The position numbers and the translations under genes were made by a program. A stretch of DNA of 64,000 bases from a virus. This document shows positions 1 to 10,463 of this stretch, in pieces. The notes beneath the pieces are model-generated. The model ran no database searches. It had not been told where the DNA came from and saw only the letters and a list, made by a program, of their open reading frames with translations. Each line of letters begins with the position of its first letter. Within the stretch, counting starts at the first letter, position 1. The stretch spans positions 1 through 64,000 of IMG/VR virus record IMGVR_UViG_3300042303_000421. One strand, written 5' to 3'.

Positions 1-56
1 TAGCTTCTAACAGATTATCAGTTCTGACGCTTTACACAGCTTAGCTATTATTTTAA

Positions 57-251
57 AAATCACTTGTCCAAATTCTAGTGGAATATTGTTTTTTCATGGT
101 TCTTATGTCTGACACGGAGTAGTTAATTTCCTCGACAATATCTCTACAATAAACACAACTGCTAGTACAGTTTATAAAGTTGAAAATCAATTTCATTAAT
201 TACATGCTGCGCTAGTAAAAACCTTATTGTTTATCTTCAAGCAAATGATTT
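57..251 (-). ncRNA. Candidate structured ncRNA unit closed by terminal stem
   Basis: AAATCACTTG (57-66) pairs with CAAATGATTT (242-251) with one G-U on the minus strand; no ORF listed; strand inferred from neighbours. Confidence 0.4.
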
Positions 252-271
252 ATATATTTATTTATTTTAAA

Positions 272-405
272 AAATAATATTCTAAATAAGATTTACTTTA
301 ACTACTTCTCGATTTAATATAACGCTAATAATGCATTAAATCTACTACTCGTTATTTTCAAAGGTTTATGTGATAGTTAATCACAACTCATTTAGAATAT
401 TATTT
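272..405 (-). ncRNA. Candidate structured ncRNA unit closed by 16-bp stem
   Basis: Perfect inverted repeat AAATAATATTCTAAAT (272-287) / ATTTAGAATATTATTT (390-405) with internal hairpins; U-tract follows on minus strand. Confidence 0.5.
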
Positions 406-412
406 AATTTTA

Positions 413-718
413 TTATTTGTTAGAATTTCTTCTATTGTGTTTTTTAGTTGTAATAACACCTAATGCTTTTTTATCAGCTTCAGTTAATTTTTTAACTGTT
501 TCAGGATGTGTTTTAACTACTGATTCAATGTGTTTAGTTAAAGCAGCATAACCTTTAGATTCAGATTCTTTTTTAACTTCTTCAAAAGTTTTAGGTTTTA
601 CTGAATTATCCATTGCTTTTTTTTGTTCAATGAATTTATTTCTTTTTTCTTTTGTATCATCTTTAGATACAAAATAAATAATACCTACTAGTATTAAAAT
701 AAACAATGCTATTCCCAT
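413..718 (-). CDS. Small protein with N-terminal membrane anchor
   Basis: 101-aa ORF, hydrophobic residues 1-17 then Lys-rich soluble part. Confidence 0.75.
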   Translation of the reverse strand: MGIALFILILVGIIYFVSKDDTKEKRNKFIEQKKAMDNSVKPKTFEEVKKESESKGYAALTKHIESVVKTHPETVKKLTEADKKALGVITTKKHNRRNSNK

Positions 719-770
719 GATTTTAGTTTTTTTTTGTTAATAATTTGTTATTATATTTTGATAGAGTATA

Positions 771-811
771 AAAAATAAACACACGTAATATAATTTCTTT
801 CTTACGTGTGT
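771..811 (-). terminator. Hairpin plus U-tract (terminator or processing stem)
   Basis: ACACACGTAA (779-788) / TTACGTGTGT (802-811) followed by TTATTTTT on minus strand. Confidence 0.55.
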
Positions 812-827
812 CTACTAACTAACTAAA

Positions 828-1208
828 TCAAATTTCAAAGCGTGTTGCTCCTAAATCTGCTGTTGTTTCAACAAATAATGCTAATACATCATCTAAAGGA
901 ATTGCTTTACTTTTAGTGTCATAAAAACATTGTGTGTTGATTGGTGTGACTTGTTTCCATTCTCTACCTTTTTCTTCAATAGTATGGAATGATTTGTTTT
1001 TTGGATTATTATCTCCACCATAATCATTGAATGTTTTCTTTTCAATGAAATGATATGTTATTACAGCTTCACTATCACCATTTTTAATAGCTCTAAGTTT
1101 AGCGTATAATCCATTTGATTTATTAATCTGATTAGGATTAATATGTTTAGACAATTGTGGTTTAACATTTGTGTTACTTTCCACTTTTTTAAAACTTTTA
1201 CTTGACAT
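828..1208 (-). CDS. Hypothetical protein
   Basis: 126-aa ORF, AT-rich leader, co-oriented with neighbours. Confidence 0.7.
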   Translation of the reverse strand: MSSKSFKKVESNTNVKPQLSKHINPNQINKSNGLYAKLRAIKNGDSEAVITYHFIEKKTFNDYGGDNNPKNKSFHTIEEKGREWKQVTPINTQCFYDTKSKAIPLDDVLALFVETTADLGATRFEI

Positions 1209-1222
1209 AATATTTAATTTAA

Positions 1223-1444
1223 TTAGTTAATTTGTTTTACAACTTCATTGATGTATACTGAACTAAAAAGCCATCCTAATAATGAAAAAAACCAAAATGG
1301 ACCTGTCATAACACAAGACATAAATTCAATATCTGTTGTTATTGTAAGAAATGCTGAAATAAATGTAGAAGGTAATAAACCTAATACAAAAATAGAAAGT
1401 ACAATTAATATACCTTCTAATACTTTTAATAATAAGTGTTTCAT
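1223..1444 (-). CDS. Small two-TM membrane protein (paralog of 1847-2062)
   Basis: MKxLLLKVLExIxIVxSIFVLG...PFW...GWL pattern shared with 1847-2062. Confidence 0.8.
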   Translation of the reverse strand: MKHLLLKVLEGILIVLSIFVLGLLPSTFISAFLTITTDIEFMSCVMTGPFWFFSLLGWLFSSVYINEVVKQIN

Positions 1445-1469
1445 AATATTTAATTTGTTAGTTTACTGT

Positions 1470-1826
1470 TTAATAAATAGAATATGTTATAAAATCAGAT
1501 TCTATTAATCTTATTTTTCCTTCCCATGTATTACAACCTCCGAAAGTATAATAATAAGTATTTGTTACTATTTCTTCTTCAGTATTTAATAATGATTCAT
1601 TATAAACAACTAATTCAGTTGAATAAAAATATACATTTTCTAATACTTGTGATGGATTTTCTTCATAACAAGGATATGTATAATTAGTTGTTTTTTTGAA
1701 TGTATGTTTAAACATATATTCATTTAAAGGTTGATTGTTATCTTCTACATATGTATCATCATTTGTACAAGCTAAAGTAAATAATAGTATAATACATACT
1801 ATTGTTGAGGTTAAAAATGTTTTCAT
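1470..1826 (-). CDS. Putative lipoprotein
   Basis: Signal peptide ending LFTLA-C followed by acidic TNDD, typical of Bacteroidota lipoproteins. Confidence 0.7.
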   Translation of the reverse strand: MKTFLTSTIVCIILLFTLACTNDDTYVEDNNQPLNEYMFKHTFKKTTNYTYPCYEENPSQVLENVYFYSTELVVYNESLLNTEEEIVTNTYYYTFGGCNTWEGKIRLIESDFITYSIY

Positions 1827-1846
1827 TATTTAATATAATAAATAGT

Positions 1847-2062
1847 TTACATTAGATCATAATCTAATATATAAGAACCAGCTATAAGCCATCCTGTAAA
1901 TGTAACAACCCAAAAAGGAATAGTTACAATACATTCAGTCATAGTTACGTCTGTAAATATTGTTATAAATGTAGAAACAAGTAAAGGAAATACAATTCCT
2001 AATACAAAAATAGAAGCTACAATTGTAATAGCTTCTAATACTTTTAATAATAATTTTTTCAT
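1847..2062 (-). CDS. Small two-TM membrane protein (paralog of 1223-1444)
   Basis: Clear sequence similarity to 1223-1444. Confidence 0.8.
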   Translation of the reverse strand: MKKLLLKVLEAITIVASIFVLGIVFPLLVSTFITIFTDVTMTECIVTIPFWVVTFTGWLIAGSYILDYDLM

Positions 2063-2093
2063 TATATTTAATTGTTTTAATTAGTTAATATTG

Positions 2094-2165
2094 TAGTCCG
2101 TATGGGATTCGAACCCATGACTTTGCCGTGAAAGGGCAATGACTTAACCACTTGTCGAACGGACC
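2094..2165 (-). tRNA. tRNA-Glu (TTC)
   Basis: Minus strand GGTCCGT acceptor stem, D arm with TGGTTAAG, anticodon arm TTGCC-CTTTCAC-GGCAA, T arm ATGGG-TTCGAAT-CCCAT; CCA not encoded. Confidence 0.95.
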
Positions 2166-2246
2166 GTTTACATTAGTTTTGAACATGATTAAATATACTT
2201 CACTACGATGTCTTCACGTATAATGTTATTGTTTAGTTAGTTAATA

Positions 2247-2408
2247 AAACTATTAGGTTCAATATAGTGTGTACAAGCACCAGCATACCTTTTAATATCC
2301 ACAGAGCTATTGTTACCAATAGATGCTATTAAATTACAGGTGAAGTAAGTATTGTCATGACTCAATATTGTTTAATTTCTTTTCAACATAGTATTGACCT
2401 AATAGTTT
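2247..2408 (-). ncRNA. Candidate structured ncRNA unit upstream of tRNA
   Basis: AAACTATTAGGT (2247-2258) / ACCTAATAGTTT (2397-2408) extended by CAATA/TATTG; internal CTATTG-GTAA-CAATAG hairpin. Confidence 0.5.
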
Positions 2409-2464
2409 GATTTAATATAATCAGTCAACCCAGCATTACCTGTAATTGACTGACTAAAGTGTTG

Positions 2465-2713
2465 TTAAACTTGTTTAAGAATAAATGTTGAATTGTCGTG
2501 TTGATACCACAATGTACCATTAGGAATACTAATAGCGTATTTATTGTTGATATACTCAACACCATCAAATTCTCTCATAAGAAAGTCTTTTACAAATTCT
2601 GCATCTAATTTACCTAATACTTGATACTCTCTCTTGTCAGTCCAATTAGGATATACAAGATTAGATTCAATAGTATGATGAGATATACGATTAATCACTT
2701 CAAATTGTGCCAT
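2465..2713 (-). CDS. Hypothetical protein
   Basis: 82-aa ORF with plausible composition. Confidence 0.7.
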   Translation of the reverse strand: MAQFEVINRISHHTIESNLVYPNWTDKREYQVLGKLDAEFVKDFLMREFDGVEYINNKYAISIPNGTLWYQHDNSTFILKQV

Positions 2714-2754
2714 AATTTTGTTATTTAGTCAGTTAATAATTTGTTTTAAAAATA

Positions 2755-2993
2755 AACTAATATATGAGGTATTACATCTCATACTGTTACCAACAGCTAT
2801 AATTAGTTAAAAATAAATACAAAGTGTGCAATATACTTGTCTATACACCACTAACTTCCTCTTTGTATTTAAAAAATAAACTCTACAAGGTTGCACCTTG
2901 AAATTATAATGAGGAACCTGTAGAAATGCTCTATTATAATATATCACTTGGTTTACAAGTCTTTGTGATAATTCCTGCAATTGGATAGAGTTT
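2755..2993 (-). ncRNA. Three abutting stem-closed RNA units (2755-2808, 2815-2870, 2878-2993)
   Basis: Inverted repeats AACTAAT/ATTAGTT, AAATACAAAG/CTTTGTATTT, AAACTCTA/TAGAGTTT, each followed on minus strand by TTATTTTT-like tract. Confidence 0.5.
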
Positions 2994-3096
2994 AAAATTC
3001 GTGCATAGCTACGCTAGTATACTATGTTCTTTTTTGTATATCATAATCTATTTGTTCTATTGTTTGTAGCTATATTATAAATAGACAAAATACTAC

Positions 3097-3275
3097 AACT
3101 CACCTGATCTTATTTCTGCGTCAGTGACATAAAAATGCATTTTACACCTAAAACTTTATTTGTTATATCTTTAATAAGATAACCTATAGACTAATAATTA
3201 CCTATTTTATAAGGGAATAAGCTAACTAATAATAAAGAAACTGGTGTCCTCAACATCTTGGAAAGTTATTAAGTT
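3097..3275 (-). ncRNA. Candidate multibranch ncRNA
   Basis: Nested stems AACTCA/TAAGTT, ACACC (3144-3148)/GGTGT (3243-3247), CTTTATT/AATAAAG, CTGA/TCAG; no ORF listed. Confidence 0.45.
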
Positions 3276-3666
3276 TTTTAGTAAATAAATTGTTCTTTCA
3301 TCATTGAACTAGTGTATATAATCAGAATATACTATTTAATTTACTATTTTGATAGACATTTCTACTTATATTATTCAATCAATAAGATAAACCAATTTGA
3401 GGAAATGTGCTATAATAAAAGAGCAATGTGGTTAAATTGAATGATGAAATGAGAGAGAATGTTGATTGTAGGGATAATCCTTCACTCATACCACTACATT
3501 AACCTCTGTCAAACCCTATAAACACTGACATTTCATAGATAATAACTGTGAGATAGAGTTTTAAAAGTAATAAGAGAAATGTCGAGAACTCTTAATACAT
3601 TTAAAGTATATTCTCACAGTCATATCAATGATAGGTTGTTGCATTACTATGTGTAATACTACGTGT

Positions 3667-3689
3667 CAAACAAAAGAGGTCGAAACCTC
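3667..3689 (-). terminator. Intrinsic terminator
   Basis: Minus strand GAGGT-TTCG-ACCTC-TTTTGTTTG directly after the 3697 stop. Confidence 0.75.
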
Positions 3690-3696
3690 AATTGTA

Positions 3697-4122
3697 TTAT
3701 GGGCCTACCTTAACTACAGGCTCTTTAGCAACTTCTTCAAGTACTACAAATTGACGATGTAGTGACTCACGTTGGTCTGCAGGACATAATCTAATTTGGC
3801 TGTAACGTCCTAATTTAGCTTCTGTGGAAGGATTAATATCTTCCTCTTGTCCTTCATAGAAAGGTGTTTTAGAGAAAGCACGATAAGGAGCAATTTTACC
3901 CTTATTAACAGAGTTAATTACTAAGTCTACTTGGCGAGACACTGCCTCTGTAGACATACCTTTAATCCACACTAAAGATTTCTCTTCTCTAACATAACCT
4001 GTGTTCATATCTAATGTTTCATCATTGATTTCAACACACATTGAGGTTTGTTCTCTACCGTCTGAAGTAGTTTTAGTCCATACTGACTGACTGTTTGCGT
4101 CTACGAATTTCTTTGCGTTCAT
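3697..4122 (-). CDS. Hypothetical protein, first gene of the leftward arm
   Basis: 141-aa ORF followed by terminator. Confidence 0.8.
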   Translation of the reverse strand: MNAKKFVDANSQSVWTKTTSDGREQTSMCVEINDETLDMNTGYVREEKSLVWIKGMSTEAVSRQVDLVINSVNKGKIAPYRAFSKTPFYEGQEEDINPSTEAKLGRYSQIRLCPADQRESLHRQFVVLEEVAKEPVVKVGP

Positions 4123-4323
4123 GATACGTTTGTTTATTGTGTAGTGAGTGTTGACAATGTAACTAAAACACTACAATTATACATTAAATTTTAGCAAGCC
4201 TATAAAACATAGGGTATACTCCAAAATTTTGAAGAAGTCGGGGCATGATATTGGCTTAGCAACCACTCTTAATCATAAAAAATTTTAAAAAAAAATATTT
4301 TTCAAAAAAAAATTACAACAATT

Positions 4324-4399
4324 AGCTATTAGAGAATGTAATTATAACAAAAATTTAACTAAAAAAATTTGGAAATTACAAATAAATGTTGTATCTTTG
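4324..4399 (+). promoter_or_regulatory. Bacteroidota-type promoter with upstream AGCTATTAG box
   Basis: TTTG 4368-4371, 20-nt spacer, TATCTTTG 4392-4399; AGCTATTAG at 4324-4332. Confidence 0.8.
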
Positions 4400-4413
4400 C
4401 ACTTATTAAAATA

Positions 4414-4685
4414 TCTTACTTTGAAAGATGCTCTGCTGGATACCATAAATTTGCTCCAGTATCAAAGGGTTAAGTAAGAAGTTGGAATCCAATCGTTCCC
4501 AACAATTCAAGACTATAAATTGATTTAACAAAAAGTGTCACGAACTAAAAATGTTACTAGATAACAGTTAAATCTGGGATAATGCACTGTTTATAGTTCA
4601 AGAAGAAGTTAAAATATGACGGTTTATGCAATACACACCAGTTTGCATATAGGGATTCTTATATCTAATTACTAAAGTTAGATAT
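4414..4685 (+). ncRNA. Candidate structured RNA / long 5' leader
   Basis: At least seven stems between the promoter and the 4714 ATG (see findings). Confidence 0.55.
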
Positions 4686-4713
4686 TAAATAGTTAATTAT
4701 AAATTAATATATA

Positions 4714-5256
4714 ATGGTGTATTTTGTGTCCGATGGTATCTATACTAAAATAGGTAAAAGTAAAACTCCTTTAAATAGAATAAAGGAATTACAAACAAGT
4801 AATGCTAATAAATTATTTTTTACACATTTATTTGATGTAAAAGATAAATATGAAAAAACATTACATAAATTATTTAAAGAATATAAAACTGATTCTAATA
4901 ATGAATGGTTTGATTTAAGAAATGTTAATATTGAAAATATACTTATTGGTAATCTATTTAAAATTCCACAATTTATAGATATTAAACTAGCTGAGTTTAA
5001 AGCTTTACAATTTAATTCTAAAGTTAATAAAACATTTAAACAAAATCAAAATATTCCTAATACAGATAGTTGTGATAAAAGTAAAATTAAATTATTATTA
5101 GACGATATTAAACATTGTTTAAAGAATAAAAAAAATACAAGAATATCCTATCATAAATATATTGTTGATTATGGTTTTACTAAAGAACAAATATCTTTTT
5201 TTGTAAAATCAGCAAGATTAAACAAATTAGTAGCTAAACACAATAATAATATTTAG
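4714..5256 (+). CDS. T5orf172/GIY-YIG-superfamily nuclease-domain protein
   Basis: VYFV...KIGKS..P..RIKELQT.N...E..LH..F......EWF pattern. Confidence 0.75.
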   Translation: MVYFVSDGIYTKIGKSKTPLNRIKELQTSNANKLFFTHLFDVKDKYEKTLHKLFKEYKTDSNNEWFDLRNVNIENILIGNLFKIPQFIDIKLAEFKALQFNSKVNKTFKQNQNIPNTDSCDKSKIKLLLDDIKHCLKNKKNTRISYHKYIVDYGFTKEQISFFVKSARLNKLVAKHNNNI

Positions 5257-5286
5257 TACCCCTCCTATGATAGTATTGTAGGATCC

Positions 5287-5320
5287 AACCACTTTAACTT
5301 AGGTTTTAGTGGTTTTTTTT
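5287..5320 (+). terminator. Intrinsic terminator
   Basis: AACCACT/AGTGGTT stem plus T-run. Confidence 0.75.
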
Positions 5321-5361
5321 ATGTCTATATATGTTAAAGTTTTGTTAAACACTTTAAATAA

Positions 5362-5393
5362 TTTGGATATATCATTTATTTTTTGTATCTTTG
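5362..5393 (+). promoter_or_regulatory. Bacteroidota-type promoter
   Basis: TTTG 5362-5365, N20, TATCTTTG 5386-5393. Confidence 0.75.
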
Positions 5394-5416
5394 TACAAGA
5401 TTTAAAATTAGAGGTT

Positions 5417-5611
5417 ATGACATATAAAGATTGGTGTAGTAAATTACAGTGGTTAAGAGATAAAGTTATATTACCAGATGGTACTTCACTTAGTAAAGCA
5501 GATTATATTACTAAAGATGGATTTGATATTAAATCCTTTAATGAATTACTTTATAACTTATATGAAAAACAAACAAAAGAAGTTAAATATTTTAATGATG
5601 AATGGAATTAA
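5417..5611 (+). CDS. Hypothetical protein
   Basis: Start moved to ATG 5417 because the longer ORF call runs through a terminator and promoter. Confidence 0.65.
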   Translation: MTYKDWCSKLQWLRDKVILPDGTSLSKADYITKDGFDIKSFNELLYNLYEKQTKEVKYFNDEWN

Positions 5612-5794
5612 ATGAGGATAACAGATAATATATTTATAGAACTTAATAATCCTAGAATAGAATTTACATTAGGGTTACATCACGAAATAGATATGGTGAT
5701 GATAGAGAAAGAAGATGAAGAAGAGAATGAAATTATACCAATGTATAGATTGGTTTTAGGATTTTTAGTGTTTAACATAACAATATTTTACTAA
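5612..5794 (+). CDS. Hypothetical small protein
   Basis: 60-aa ORF abutting neighbours. Confidence 0.65.
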   Translation: MRITDNIFIELNNPRIEFTLGLHHEIDMVMIEKEDEEENEIIPMYRLVLGFLVFNITIFY

Positions 5795-6069
5795 TGTTTT
5801 TAGATATACAAAAGAAATACAACGAAATAGAACAAGATATTATAGAGAATGAAAAGGATATATTTTTAAGATATAACTATTTTTCTAAGAAATATAAGGG
5901 TGATAGATTAAATGATGTGAATGTAGGTTTATTTTTAAATGATAATTTAGAACCAGTAGCACAGATATTTGTTAGAAACAAAACGGGTTATATTAAAAAA
6001 CATATAATCTTTAATAGAGAAGGAAATAAAATTTTAAATACAATAACTTTAAATTATAAAATAAACTAA
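5794..6069 (+). CDS. Hypothetical protein
   Basis: TAATG coupling at both ends. Confidence 0.7.
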   Translation: MFLDIQKKYNEIEQDIIENEKDIFLRYNYFSKKYKGDRLNDVNVGLFLNDNLEPVAQIFVRNKTGYIKKHIIFNREGNKILNTITLNYKIN

Positions 6070-6374
6070 TGGGAGATATATTTTTATATAATGAAGCAGA
6101 GCATTATGTTAATACTTTAAATGGAGTATTAAATCAAGGTAATCTTGAATTTGCTAAAAAAACATTACTGTTTGATACAGTAAGACCACACACAGAGGTT
6201 GTATCAGCTAAACAACATTATCCAGAGAATGATCTTTCTAAAGTAGAACTTAAAATTGATGTGGTTCTAATGGATAGAGAAAGATATGATAGATTAATTA
6301 AGTTGGAGAAAGCATTAAATAGTCAATATAATAATAGTACTAAAAAAGAATATTTAAATTTTCCTAAATTATAA
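6069..6374 (+). CDS. Hypothetical protein
   Basis: 101-aa ORF, translationally coupled. Confidence 0.7.
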   Translation: MGDIFLYNEAEHYVNTLNGVLNQGNLEFAKKTLLFDTVRPHTEVVSAKQHYPENDLSKVELKIDVVLMDRERYDRLIKLEKALNSQYNNSTKKEYLNFPKL

Positions 6375-6377
6375 TTT

Positions 6378-6674
6378 ATGAGTAGTTATATGAAAAGTGG
6401 GTTACGTCAAATGAAAGTAGCTGAAGGTAAGAAAACAAAGAAACATGTAAAAGCTTCTTATAAGATTATGCATGACATGGAAGAAATAAGTAAATTTTTA
6501 GATCCAACAATAGATTACAATGAAGAAAATATTAATGAATATGTTTTACCTTTGTACGGTAGGGATCTTGATCCAATGGAAAAGTTTCTAGTGTTAGGTA
6601 AGATACACTCACGTAAAGAAGATGTTGTTAATAATATAGAAGTTAAACATGGCTTACAAAATAACACTGAATAA
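6378..6674 (+). CDS. Hypothetical protein
   Basis: 98-aa ORF in operon. Confidence 0.7.
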   Translation: MSSYMKSGLRQMKVAEGKKTKKHVKASYKIMHDMEEISKFLDPTIDYNEENINEYVLPLYGRDLDPMEKFLVLGKIHSRKEDVVNNIEVKHGLQNNTE

Positions 6675-6930
6675 TATTAAACAGTATATTGAAGGTAATA
6701 CCCAGATGATGTTAGATGGTCTGGGTATAAAACCTGACTATTATAAAGAACAGATTGCTTATAGAATGTTACAATGTAGAGATTGTATGTCTAAAGGTGA
6801 ATGTGCTTATTGTGGTTGTAGTGTACCTGGAAAGTTATATGTTGCTCAATCTTGTAATAATGGTAAAAGATTTCCTGATTTAATGGATGAAACAGAATGG
6901 ACTAAATATAAAGAAGACAATGACATTTAA
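6649..6930 (+). CDS. Cys-rich putative zinc-binding protein
   Basis: CRDC..CAYCGC..C motifs. Confidence 0.7.
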   Translation: MAYKITLNNIKQYIEGNTQMMLDGLGIKPDYYKEQIAYRMLQCRDCMSKGECAYCGCSVPGKLYVAQSCNNGKRFPDLMDETEWTKYKEDNDI

Positions 6931-7138
6931 TAATACATATACATTAAAGGATAAAAACATTAAGAAGCTTTTAGATAAAGTAGAAGCATTTATAACTAAT
7001 ATGAATGTGTTTACAACTAAGCATGAAGGATATTCTTATAAGTTAGAAATTAGTAAGTTTAAAAACTTATGGGAAGCAGAAATACATATAAAAGATGAAA
7101 AGCAAAATAGTATTAAAAGAACTGAAAAAACTCTATAA
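6920..7138 (+). CDS. Hypothetical protein
   Basis: In-frame ATG at 6920 reduces overlap. Confidence 0.55.
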   Translation: MTFNNTYTLKDKNIKKLLDKVEAFITNMNVFTTKHEGYSYKLEISKFKNLWEAEIHIKDEKQNSIKRTEKTL

Positions 7139-7406
7139 ACATTTAACGTATTATAATTGGTTAGCACCTTTTCCAGTATATGATACAGATTATGTAAAAG
7201 ACGTTGATAATAAAATTAAAGAGATAATGGAAAATAATAAAAAAGATTATGACGAGGAACCAGTAGTAGCTTGTAAGTATTGTAAAAGTTTACACATTGA
7301 AACAGATGAATTAAACAATGATGTGTGTATGAAATGTGGTAGTATTAATGAACTACAAACATTTAAAAATATTTTTGACTACAAAAAATTTAAAGAAGAA
7401 TCATAA
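7095..7406 (+). CDS. Zinc-ribbon protein
   Basis: CKYC...CMKC motif. Confidence 0.7.
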   Translation: MKSKIVLKELKKLYKHLTYYNWLAPFPVYDTDYVKDVDNKIKEIMENNKKDYDEEPVVACKYCKSLHIETDELNNDVCMKCGSINELQTFKNIFDYKKFKEES

Positions 7407-7407
7407 T

Positions 7408-8073
7408 ATGCATCAAGCTAACAGACAACGTAAAAATGAAATTAAATATAATGTCACTTTAAATGAAGAACAGAAAGAAGCTAAACGAGCTATTATAGAT
7501 AATCAAATTGTAATAATTACTGGTAGAGCAGGTTCGGGTAAATCATTAGTAGGTGCTGTTACAGCTTTAGATTTTTTAAATACTAAACAATGTGATAAAG
7601 TATTAGTTGCTAGAAGTGCTGTTGAAGTAGGTAAATCATTAGGTTTTTTACCTGGAGATTTAAAAGAAAAGTTTAATCCTTATATGGAAGCTTTAATAGA
7701 AAATCTTTATAAGTGTATGGATAGATTAAAAATTGATGATTTTGTTAAACAAGGAAAAATTCAAGCTTTACCTGTACAGTTTATTAGGGGTAAAACTATT
7801 GATGATATATTGATTGTTGAAGAAGCACAAAACCTAACACCTAAAGAAATGGAAGCAATTTTAACCAGATTAGGTACTACAGGTAAAATAATTGTTAATG
7901 GTGATGCTAGTCAACGAGATATTAGTTTAGATAAAGAAACAGGTGGTATAACAGGATTAGACTTTGCAATTGAGTTATCTAAAAACATTGAAGGTATTGT
8001 ACACATTAAACTTAAAGAAAATCACAGAAGTGGACTAGTCGGAAAAATACTAGATTATATATATGGAAAATAA
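7408..8073 (+). CDS. phoH: PhoH-family ATPase
   Basis: GRAGSGKS Walker A, LGFLPGDL.EK..PY, RGKT, EEAQN, GD..Q.D, HRS motifs; start at ATG 7408. Confidence 0.92.
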   Translation: MHQANRQRKNEIKYNVTLNEEQKEAKRAIIDNQIVIITGRAGSGKSLVGAVTALDFLNTKQCDKVLVARSAVEVGKSLGFLPGDLKEKFNPYMEALIENLYKCMDRLKIDDFVKQGKIQALPVQFIRGKTIDDILIVEEAQNLTPKEMEAILTRLGTTGKIIVNGDASQRDISLDKETGGITGLDFAIELSKNIEGIVHIKLKENHRSGLVGKILDYIYGK

Positions 8074-8459
8074 TGAACAATGTTAAACAAGCAAATATTA
8101 ATATTAAGTTAAAAAACCTATTTTTTAAATGGTTAGAGATAACAAAACCTTTACATAAGTTAACACCACAAGAACAAGATGTATTAGCATTACTATTATA
8201 TTATCATTATAAAACCAAACACGAAACTACAAACGAAAAGATCTTGTGGAAAATAGTGTTTGATTATGATACTAAAATGAAAATTAAAGAAAATTTAAAT
8301 ATGAAAGATAGTGCTTTACAAACAGTACTAACTAAATTAAGACAGAAGAAAATTATAATTGATAATAAAATCTCTCCTATCTTTATTCCTTCATTAGAAT
8401 TAAATAGTAAAAATTTTAAAATGATATATAATTTTAATATTATTAGTGATGAAAAATAA
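8073..8459 (+). CDS. Putative DNA-binding (winged-helix-like) protein
   Basis: LT..E.DVL...Y and C-terminal 'KIKENLNM..SALQTVLTKLRQKKII' HTH-like segment. Confidence 0.5.
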   Translation: MNNVKQANINIKLKNLFFKWLEITKPLHKLTPQEQDVLALLLYYHYKTKHETTNEKILWKIVFDYDTKMKIKENLNMKDSALQTVLTKLRQKKIIIDNKISPIFIPSLELNSKNFKMIYNFNIISDEK

Positions 8460-8718
8460 AACACATGAGAGAAAGGTACAACAATTAATTCACAGAATAG
8501 GTTTAAAACATAACTTAACAGATAAACAGGTTGAGGAGATTATAAATTCTCAATATGAGTTTATAAAAGAAAAAATAATAGAAATAGACATCAATGATGT
8601 TGAAATAAAAAGTAATTTTTTACTTAAATACTTAGGTAAATTGTATATAGATAGAGATAAATTAAAAAGTAAAATTGAATCGTATGAAAGAAGACACGCA
8701 GACAAACATGAATCATGA
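8449..8718 (+). CDS. HU/IHF-like DNA-binding protein
   Basis: Helical N-terminus (LIHRIG.KHNLT..QVEEII) then F.L..LGKL beta segment. Confidence 0.5.
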   Translation: MKNKTHERKVQQLIHRIGLKHNLTDKQVEEIINSQYEFIKEKIIEIDINDVEIKSNFLLKYLGKLYIDRDKLKSKIESYERRHADKHES

Positions 8719-9061
8719 TGATATATTAGATGTTATTACAGATTTTCCTGTAAAACCATTATGGGGGCAAGTGATTATTACAGTTAACACTGATGAAGCA
8801 GACGGAGTATTAGTATTATCTGATAGTTCTTTTTCTGAAAAACAATATGTTGTATCAGGAAGTATTGAATATGGAGATACTAAAGTTGTTCCAGGAACAC
8901 CAGTATTGATTGATATTAAGAAATTAATGAAAACTGTAAAGACAGAAGTTGATAATGTTTATGGAGAATATAAAGTTGTAGAAATTGATCCACTTAAAGT
9001 AAATGGAATAATGTATGCAGTAGTAGATAGTAGAGTAATTAAAGCAATTGATTTAAGATAA
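8684..9061 (+). CDS. GroES-like co-chaperonin (divergent)
   Basis: VKPL...VIITV start, GVLVL loop, V.PG..VL, and Y.VV....I.AID end resemble Cpn10; near GroEL; start could be 8708. Confidence 0.5.
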   Translation: MKEDTQTNMNHDDILDVITDFPVKPLWGQVIITVNTDEADGVLVLSDSSFSEKQYVVSGSIEYGDTKVVPGTPVLIDIKKLMKTVKTEVDNVYGEYKVVEIDPLKVNGIMYAVVDSRVIKAIDLR

Positions 9062-9329: not shown

Positions 9330-9895
9330 TGAAGTTATTTGAAATGAAAAACCATGACCTCCAGACGAACGAAGCTCTCTGGGGGTTATTACCTTTTAAA
9401 GCTTTACTAAAAAGAGATAAAAGTAGAAATAAAGAAATTGTATTTAAAGAAATACTCTTTATTTATTTTTATTGTGATATCCGTTCTGATTATGTTTATA
9501 TAACTAATGATGAACTTAGAGCTAAAGAGATACAAAAAGATGTTGGTTTACCTACAGAATGGAAAATAGATAAAGCTATTTTAGATGCAATTGAAATGTA
9601 TGAATCTAAAACTATAACTCCAGTAGGTAAATTATATAAAAGTTCATTAAAAGCAGCAGACGATATTTCTAATTATTTAGAATCAACAAATGTACTTTTA
9701 AATGAAAGAACGGATAAAGGTAGTGTAGTAACTCCTTTAACAACTATTACTTCAGCTCTTAAATCAGTACCAGGTATTATGAGAGATTTAAAAGCAGCTT
9801 ATAAAGAAGTAGTAGCAGAACAAAAAGAAATGGAAGGAAGAACTAAAGGTAGTCGTACTTTAGGAATGTTTGAAGAAGGATTTGATCTTAATTAA
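9329..9895 (+). CDS. Conserved crAss-like protein upstream of terminase (possible small terminase subunit)
   Basis: 188-aa helical ORF; function inferred from position only. Confidence 0.5.
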   Translation: MKLFEMKNHDLQTNEALWGLLPFKALLKRDKSRNKEIVFKEILFIYFYCDIRSDYVYITNDELRAKEIQKDVGLPTEWKIDKAILDAIEMYESKTITPVGKLYKSSLKAADDISNYLESTNVLLNERTDKGSVVTPLTTITSALKSVPGIMRDLKAAYKEVVAEQKEMEGRTKGSRTLGMFEEGFDLN

Positions 9896-9896
9896 T

Positions 9897-10463
9897 ATGA
9901 AAAATAATATTTGTATTTACAGACATATTAGGTTAGATACTAATAAAATATTTTATATTGGAATAGGTTCTTTAAAAAGAGCTTATAAAAAATATGGAAG
10001 AAATACTTATTGGAAAAATATTACTAATAAAATAGATTATGAAGTACAAATTCTTAAAAAAGATTTGACTTGGGAAGATGCTAAAGAATTAGAAATAATA
10101 TTAATAAAATATTATGGTAGAATAAATAATAATACAGGTATTTTAGTAAATATGACAGATGGTGGTGAGGGACAACTTAATTTTAGGCCTACAAAAGAAA
10201 CTAGAGAAAAAATTGGAAATTTTCATAGAAATAAAAAAGTATCTTCTATTTCAAAAGAAAAAATGTCAAAAGCTAAAGAAGGTATGTATTATTTAGAAAA
10301 TAATCCTAATTCTAAAAAAGTTGTAAATATAAAAACAAATGAAATATATAACACTTTATTAGAAGCGTCTAAAAGTATTAACATGAATTATAGTTCTTTT
10401 AAATGGGCTATTAAACATAAAAAGAATTTTAATTTTAAATATTTACAAATATGGGAGAAATAG
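9897..10463 (+). CDS. Homing endonuclease, GIY-YIG-like with NUMOD3-type repeats
   Basis: IYRH.R.D....FYIGIG...RA, E..LI..YGR, N.TDGGEG, ETREKI / SKEKMSKAK. Confidence 0.85.
   Translation: MKNNICIYRHIRLDTNKIFYIGIGSLKRAYKKYGRNTYWKNITNKIDYEVQILKKDLTWEDAKELEIILIKYYGRINNNTGILVNMTDGGEGQLNFRPTKETREKIGNFHRNKKVSSISKEKMSKAKEGMYYLENNPNSKKVVNIKTNEIYNTLLEASKSINMNYSSFKWAIKHKKNFNFKYLQIWEK

Follow-up and report, generated by a model that had tools for sequence, protein, structure and literature searches.

A covarying RNA family and a putative GIY-YIG endonuclease in an exchangeable cassette of crAss-like phages

What is the relation between a large structured RNA and the nuclease ORF that lies directly behind it? 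The question is raised by a unit at positions 4368 to 5320 of the window, a stretch of 64,000 nucleotides that represents the first 64 kb of a linear virus record of 79,654 bases (GC 26%, completeness 79%). The terminase of the window matches crAss-like phages at ~40-43% (145 records), and a gene near the unit matches Cellulophaga phage phi14:2 at 44%. Lake and freshwater metagenomes hold sequences close to the window. The unit is the first rightward unit past a strand switch, and no relatives were found for its leftward neighbor gene. A reading of the letters alone (the sequence-only reading) had offered three explanations: a ribonucleoprotein nuclease, a ribozyme remnant, or an abundant late ncRNA invaded by an endonuclease. 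The last of these fits best, with the reservation that the promoter is of the "middle" type, not strictly late.

The unit is on the plus strand and begins with a host-RNA-polymerase promoter at 4368..4399, with -33 and -7 elements of the Bacteroidota type. It is followed by the structured ncRNA "type A" (RNA A, 4405..4690, ~285 nt, with ends inferred from conservation) and the nuclease ORF (4714..5256, 180 aa). The distance from the -7 element to the first ATG is 314 nt, compared with 15-29 nt at six other strong promoter-like sites of the same type on the same genome, in agreement with the short leaders that had been noticed at other promoters. Behind the stop codon are a small hairpin (5263..5283) and an intrinsic terminator composed of a hairpin and a T run (5287..5320), which was identified by reading the sequence and is absent from the terminator-scan output. 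The small hairpin had been proposed as part of the unit; it is present here but is not conserved, being absent from 7/7 homologues displayed. The next copy of the promoter, at 5362..5393, starts the following operon. The position in phi14:2 that is equivalent to 4368..4399, before g110, has a mapped middle promoter of the host polymerase (10.1101/2020.03.07.982082).

RNA A is a real, conserved and uncatalogued structured RNA. Its 5' domain (4414..4479) is closed by P1 (4414-4421/4472-4479), which encloses P2 (4434-4439/4456-4461) and an invariant GGG (4467-4469). The 3' domain (4484..4659) contains P3 to P7. Two long-range helices, P3 (4484-4490/4653-4659) and P4 (4491-4497/4618-4624), are followed by an invariant CCC (4498-4500), which can pair either with the 5' GGG (4467-4469) or with a 3' GGG (4652-4654), so that a pseudoknot or a switch can be formed. 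P5 (4511-4520/4589-4598) surrounds P6 (4522-4529/4567-4574) with two small hairpins and a conserved unpaired GCACT (4584-4588). P7 is at 4625-4631/4643-4649, and P8, the last hairpin, is at 4661..4685. All seven stems of the sequence-only reading lie where it had placed them. One of them, 4481/4499, gives way to P3 and P4: its pair probability is 0.01 and only 44/60 cells pair in homologues. A kissing-loop reading of segment 4484-4490 was dropped in favor of the nested helix.

The fold is supported by compensatory changes among homologues and not by folding of the single sequence. The sequence-only reading had called the RNA highly structured; its own fold is not beyond chance (z -1.43; 15/200 shuffles equally good), but in a MAFFT alignment of 12 sequences, 25/80 pairs are changed on both sides. 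In the same alignment, 90.4% of 937 cells are paired, which was reached by 0/500 shuffles and compares with 33-46% in slid controls, although relatedness alone can beat shuffles. In a model-fitted alignment of 16 distinct rows, which leans to the model, 40/76 pairs are changed on both sides. Further pair types, as one measure, are not above shuffles (476 and 144 of 500). The covariance model (CM) matches 4407-4692 of the window with 297 bits. RNA A is 91-95% identical to its close relatives, while their ORFs are 82-84% identical. Single-base indels in 11/11 RNA A homologues exclude a reading frame.

No known RNA family corresponds to RNA A in Rfam. There was no type A match at the gathering score in the window and none at E up to 10 in 4100-5500. 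The search that had been recommended with group I models included gave no match of type A to group I, group II, HEARO or small self-cleaving ribozyme models, and at E up to 10 no intron or ribozyme model matched the window or two divergent relatives (L173 and L165). The large ncRNAs in Rfam 15 (GOLLD, ROOL, OLE, and raiA), together with all other families, gave no match. Two other RNAs described below, types B and C, have no Rfam match, either. Blastn against 50,697 phage records returned only promoter-sized or chance matches for type A and none for types B and C. A pattern scan of viral contigs for type A gave 31 matches; six are real, all of them already known, and the rest are without HMM or CM support. 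In bacterial genomes, the type A pattern gave 7 matches, none to the full CM (best 32 nt, 18.5 bits), and type C gave none. The type B pattern returned only its two known loci. The literature search found no description of RNA A or of an RNA-dependent T5orf172 nuclease. RNAs A, B, and C may be among the unnamed candidates of PMC10690425. The candidate DNAVirus_1375 of Fremin et al., located upstream of T5orf172, was judged to be different by its table row alone (81 nt, 4 sequences, rhizosphere).

There is a hint that RNA A is expressed. Metatranscriptome contigs of relatives cover 4497-4660 and 4539-4690 with 91-96% identity; they come from three runs, two of which are apparently one data set, and, as contigs only, they could represent DNA. 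No contig covers the ORF in these three RNA-seq runs, an absence that carries no weight at the low depth of these contigs of relatives.

The relation between the RNA and the ORF becomes clearer when the same slot is compared among related phages. Through a neighboring conserved gene, 58 related crAss-like loci were fetched, of which six end before the slot and 52 cover it. The slot is headed by the same repeated promoter. It contains RNA A with the nuclease in seven loci, RNA A alone in seven (three clear and four divergent copies), type C in 30, type B in two, and none of these in six. RNA A thus does not always precede this nuclease, as 7/52 loci have the RNA and no nuclease. RNA homologues independent of the nuclease were the first of the two findings that the sequence-only reading had named as refuting its ribonucleoprotein. 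The clear copies without the nuclease (L161, L171, and L166) score 91-100 bits with the CM, and each is followed by a terminator. In L161 and L171, the terminator and a new promoter are followed by the gene of a different protein, 235 aa long and GIY-YIG-like at its N-terminus, so these two RNAs are not far from any nuclease. The divergent copies (L165, L173, L176, and L177) share motif order and spacing with RNA A. Their assignment is weak, as it comes from a motif descriptor, weak HMM cross-matches (E 3e-4 to 0.6) and helices rebuilt by hand; L177 alone among them scores with the CM (19.7 bits). The descriptor, which was fitted after the copies had been seen, finds 13/60 loci and the window, with 0.05 expected per shuffled set.

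Type C, the commonest occupant, is an RNA of ~180-200 nt unrelated to type A (for example, L142:4478-4655 and L144:5575-5750, both on the plus strand; 30 loci in all). In type C, 3/11 predicted pairs are changed on both sides, and the loop of its 5' hairpin apparently pairs with a downstream segment. Type B is an RNA of ~330 nt found on the plus strand of L129 (4076-4409) and L172 (3896-4235), two phages that are far apart on the phage tree. In both loci, type B is followed by an ORF of 72-73 aa with similarity to the nuclease's C-terminal domain. The small proteins form a conserved family of 70-73 aa with 19 clusters or intact relatives, and their link to the C-terminal domain is modest (HMM E 5e-4 and 1.3e-3; hhalign probability 15%). 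Such a domain is always 3' of a large structured RNA of type A or B (9/9 such ORFs in the 58 loci).

Two RNA types were never seen in one locus (0/58 loci of 14 kb, plus the incomplete genome of the window). The distribution of types A and C among the 52 loci gives a Fisher p of 1.8e-7, with loci that are not independent. Protein-coding cassettes, unlike the RNA types, stack at the slot under their own promoters. At a single promoter of an environmental crAss-like clade, three covarying RNA families new to Rfam 15 take each other's place, a pointer to a phage function based on RNA that is so far unassigned. In phi14:2, the models of the three types gave no match in 1-9000 and 86661-100418. Since phi14:2 has no such RNA in these stretches and 6/52 loci have none of the three, the RNA is dispensable in some phages.

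Near-identical phages reveal how the occupants are exchanged. Over most of 14 kb, the identity between L145 (RNA A with the nuclease) and L144 (type C) is 97-99%, falling to 87-94% in some blocks on the left side of the slot; their difference runs from just past the -7 element to the terminator stem. This pair offers a donor and its predicted target DNA. The window and L163 are 86.5% identical over 4367-5255 and ~72% elsewhere. In a tree by a quick method from six concatenated neighboring proteins (57 rows; L160, L180, and L181 left out), the eight nuclease carriers occupy seven places, several of them sister to type C phages. Nuclease presence requires seven changes for eight carriers among 46 rows, compared with 7.55 for shuffled labels. 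RNA type requires 11 changes, compared with 14.7 when shuffled (8/500), and therefore keeps some tree signal. As far as genome comparison tells, everything between the promoter and the terminator travels from phage to phage as one cassette, and the terminator is the right-hand limit of the exchange. The self-contained unit, with the promoter and the terminator that the sequence-only reading had described, is thus borne out, and it is exchanged whole.

The ORF assigned earlier to GIY-YIG/T5orf172 does encode such a domain. The 180-aa protein matches the Pfam families MUG113 (E 1.7e-10) and T5orf172 (E 3.1e-7) over residues 9-75, and no other Pfam family. Residues Y3, G14, R22, E47, H51, and E64 are invariant in 29/29 homologues, and from the GIY-YIG superfamily we infer catalytic-type roles for them. 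The structure model (mean pLDDT 92.8) predicts an N-terminal GIY-YIG domain, a long helix, and a C-terminal four-helix domain in a helix-turn-helix-like arrangement (residues 120-180; 5071..5253 on the plus strand; pLDDT above 90). The N-terminal part of the model matches Slx1 (Z 5.5, rmsd 3.3, 92 aligned) and HIGLE (Z 5.0), and residues 112-180 match many HTH proteins (Z 4.5-5.8), in both cases below the reliable level of the tool. Foldseek gave no match at E 0.001 for the whole protein or the C-terminal domain. The latter has no Pfam assignment and no usable match in Atlas, and a scan for it returned only the same seven viral loci. Protein searches with the nuclease found 38 relatives and then 603 weaker ones (7 below 1e-30), while tblastn against the 50,697 phage records gave no match. 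The net charge of the protein is +15. One family member, P0044, has a tandem duplication of the C-terminal helical domain. Tandem duplicates occur in DNA-binding modules of other homing endonucleases.

From its sequence and model, the protein looks like a putative endonuclease resembling homing endonucleases. A GIY-YIG domain with a separate domain is the usual layout of phage homing endonucleases (PMC10448857). Two features expected of a free-standing T5orf172 homing endonuclease were found here: a GIY-YIG/T5orf172 domain with conserved catalytic-type residues, and sporadic presence in close relatives at an exchange boundary. The RNA likewise has features of an autonomous structured ncRNA, as it is covarying, non-coding, equipped with its own promoter and terminator, and present without the ORF.

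While RNA A occurs without the nuclease, the reverse was not seen. Besides the window, 15 loci contain the full-length nuclease (L001-L005, L011, L012, and L028-L035). Upstream DNA of 300 nt or more is available for the window and for 13 of these loci, some of which are near-duplicates, and RNA A is located directly after the promoter in 14/14 cases; no full-length homologue without RNA A was found among these 14. Of the remaining two, L003 shows the 3' half of RNA A where its contig ends, and the upstream DNA of L034 is limited to 59 nt. At generic T5orf172 loci, some with short upstream DNA, RNA A was found in 0/65.

A pairing between the RNA and the start of the ORF may account for this one-way dependence. 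The P7 loop hexamer (4635..4640) is complementary to 4715-4720 at the start of the nuclease ORF. The pairing energy of -8.4 kcal/mol is lower than those of 46/46 other starts in the window and 515/515 internal 13-mers. Among 12 nuclease-linked RNAs, 11 keep 4-7 such pairs; L029/L030 show two compensatory changes, and L031/L032 pair at just four bases. Own loop-start pairs beat 4954/5000 permutations (p ~0.009, with related rows). L011 is the sole exception among nuclease carriers, having the nuclease and no loop hexamer. In the nuclease-free L161 and L166, there is a short loop at the position of the P7 hexamer. It is predicted from these sequences that the P7 loop pairs with the nuclease start codon and controls translation in cis. 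Such control would explain in cis why the nuclease depends on RNA A, and a ribonucleoprotein is not required for it. Hairpins sequester the translation start in homing endonuclease genes of T4. RNA A is similar in that RNA pairing covers a translation start, but the pairing comes from the loop of a 285-nt RNA ~75 nt upstream. A second start-codon pairing with 4582-4593, which appears in the MFE structure of the window, was rejected as its bases differ in L012, L029, L031, L032, and L011.

The explanation that we consider probable is that an autonomous phage ncRNA acquired a free-standing homing endonuclease. The enzyme would replace rival alleles of the RNA, and its translation would be restrained in cis. 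RNA A would be an autonomous ncRNA whose transcription by the host RNA polymerase starts at the first promoter in the rightward direction, which is of the middle type. In an aquatic crAss-like clade, it would alternate in the slot with two other structured RNAs, B and C; the three are unrelated and mutually exclusive. One lineage of RNA A would have gained the nuclease. Phage comparison indicates that the cassette travels whole, from promoter to terminator. During mixed infection, the nuclease may find DNA through its own C-terminal helical domain and may cut the rival phage in or beside the slot, with the common type C allele as the most likely target. The break would then be repaired by way of the conserved flanks, the promoter on one side and terminator/promoter on the other, and RNA A would be copied in together with the nuclease, so that the converted phage keeps a working RNA. 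Covariation predicts that the P7 loop on the nuclease start codon keeps translation low. This would be a case of homing in which an ncRNA allele is the cargo and the RNA apparently controls the translation of its own nuclease. Against parts of this explanation, swaps at repeated promoters are possible without cutting, and the C-terminal domain alone after a different RNA (L129 and L172) also fits an RNA-binding domain.

The role of the RNA in trans is the weakest step. RNA A might be abundant during infection and bind protein, either as a decoy or as a scaffold. Its target would most likely be a host or anti-phage factor, and such a role would account for the interchangeability of unrelated alleles. 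We hold this role only tentatively. Some function outside those named here is a lesser possibility, a ribozyme or processing role is rather unlikely, and packaging and replication priming are each improbable.

The observations that RNA A accompanies 14/14 full-length homologues and 0/65 generic T5orf172 loci, and that the C-terminal domain occurs only downstream of large structured RNAs of type A or B (9/9), would also fit a ribonucleoprotein nuclease, in which the protein binds RNA A through its C-terminal domain and depends on it for scaffolding or activation, whether or not there is a guide. The net charge of +15 and the better conservation of the RNA than of the ORF also suit this explanation, in which the nuclease-free RNAs would be partners of proteins encoded elsewhere or ancestral forms. 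However, no guide was found. In six RNAs, the longest exact matches to the own genome (G000) and 30 type C loci of 14 kb are 14-17 nt, AT-rich, and within the shuffle range (10-96 of 100 shuffles as long); RNA A has no hypervariable segment, and the 5' leader before its structure is only ~10-25 nt and A/T-rich. The deepest RNA variants lack the nuclease, and the start-codon pairing accounts for the link in cis. RNA and ORF identities are weakly correlated (Spearman 0.40; 0.24 for the C-terminal domain), and the RNAs of L012 and L032 are 95% identical while their proteins are 57% identical, indicating that the RNA and the ORF are loosely coupled. The RNA and protein trees disagree in part, although not firmly: RNA data reject a protein split (p-AU 0.011, for a group named after the tree was seen), and protein data reject 0/3 RNA splits (p 0.09-0.19). 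The ribonucleoprotein of the sequence-only reading is weakened by RNA homologues without the nuclease, although the nuclease was never found without the RNA (14/14); we consider it unlikely. The same low probability applies to its fullest form, in which RNA A would be a scaffold or catalytic partner of a GIY-YIG ribonucleoprotein, the helical domain would dock a nuclease or nothing on two large RNAs, the three exchangeable RNAs would share one function in infection, and an RNA-controlled nuclease would drive allele replacement. Should the protein depend on the RNA, it would represent a kind of GIY-YIG nuclease of which no report was found in the literature.

Another possibility is that RNA A is a ribozyme or a derived intron core, processing itself or neighboring stable RNAs, and that the nuclease is its former intron-type homing endonuclease. 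GIY-YIG genes are often located in group I introns. Invariant unpaired bases and a probable pseudoknot across RNAs otherwise little alike, as well as a tRNA directly upstream in the same unit in L165, agree with this possibility. It is doubtful in view of the absence of any intron or ribozyme match, of a promoter and a terminator of its own with no interrupted gene or exons, and of a helix order that does not fit the group I core. Alternative alleles contain another RNA, not joined exons. The loop-to-start-codon pairing with its covariation could also mean that RNA A is only a cis-regulatory leader, or an antisense cassette, of the nuclease gene. In seven loci, however, such an ORF is missing behind the RNA, and most of the 285 nt are far from the start codon and better conserved than the ORF. 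The antisense reading was rejected, as the fold favors the sense strand (75 G-U versus 27 A-C cells) and no opposing -7 motif exists in 4401-5400. We regard the leader as the least probable of all the explanations. Hardly more probable is a domesticated anti-satellite or anti-phage weapon similar to Odn of ICP1, accompanied by a counter-defense-slot RNA and swapped by recombination at repeated promoters instead of homing. The locus that encodes Odn, which belongs to T5orf172, can be swapped (PMC9040626 and PMC10448857), other cassettes stack at the slot under their own promoter copies, and the exchange borders are the promoter and the terminator. No satellite or captured origin-binding domain was identified, however, and a selfish cycle is at least as good an explanation of the tree scatter and of the loss in most lineages of the RNA.

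The homing cassette proposed here shares features with several known systems. In ICP1, the T5orf172 gene tcgC accompanies helB and not helA, and odn alternates with CRISPR-Cas at one locus (PMC9040626). As in these ICP1-type genes, a T5orf172 domain with a separate accessory domain is sporadic, tied to one alternative allele, and flanked by homology (PMC9040626 and PMC10448857). In contrast to them, the co-travelling allele is a structured RNA gene instead of a protein gene, the nuclease and the RNA are on one transcript, and the accessory domain is helical, whereas zinc fingers are reported for 200/229 T5orf172 genes in PMC10448857. SegB of T4 cuts tRNA genes (PMC13565253). The T4 seg genes, with SegB beside tRNA genes, are similar in that a GIY-YIG enzyme is tied to stable-RNA genes, but the RNA here is not a tRNA.

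Like HEARO and IscB-omegaRNA (OMEGA), the unit is mobile and has a compact nuclease ORF immediately preceded by a large structured RNA. Unlike these systems, it has no RuvC or HNH, encodes only 180 aa with a Slx1/HIGLE-type fold, matches no HEARO model in Rfam, and gave no guide-like segment in the search by exact matches; it occupies a fixed slot instead of dispersed transposon sites, and its RNA persists without the ORF. The analogy to HEARO drawn earlier is weakened by these differences. RNA A resembles GOLLD, ROOL, OLE, raiA, phi14:2 g004-g006, and the ICP1 lncRNA in being large and covarying and in having its own promoter, but differs from the catalogued large ncRNAs in having no Rfam match and in sharing one slot with two other exchangeable folds. 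Two abundant long ncRNAs are described for phi14:2 (10.1101/2020.03.07.982082), and a lncRNA with a fixed place and a divergent sequence for ICP1-like phages (PMC9040626).

Several further elements were observed around the slot. The slot region is rich in nuclease cassettes. A GIY-YIG-like protein of 235-242 aa is encoded past the slot under its own promoter in L161 (from ~4525), L171, and L001 (3691-4419, plus strand), and an HNH-like ORF precedes it in L004 (2232-2606). The tRNA upstream of the divergent RNA A of L165 is at 5605-5677 on the plus strand. L127, which also has type C, encodes a tmRNA at 1785-2147 on the minus strand. Inserts of ~70 nt with a similar start lie between the promoter and the RNA in L166 (204-271, type A) and L127 (5435-5510, type C), both on the plus strand.

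A conserved G/C-run element is located at the strand switch of the window (~4210-4250), just upstream of the first leftward gene, and is found in about two dozen loci, including L183:2374-2432 (phi14:2), L124, L127, L129, L138, L142-L145, L150, L152, L154, and L161. It could be a genome end, an origin, or a start site of the virion RNA polymerase. The window also has a tRNA-Glu at 2094-2165 on the minus strand. At 9870-10463 on the plus strand, just before groEL, a 197-aa ORF with a NUMOD3 motif is probably another free-standing homing endonuclease. A PhoH-like gene (7336-8073, plus strand) is 82-87% identical to those in L147, L148, L163, and L172 and ~33% identical to those in other relatives, suggesting its own horizontal exchange.
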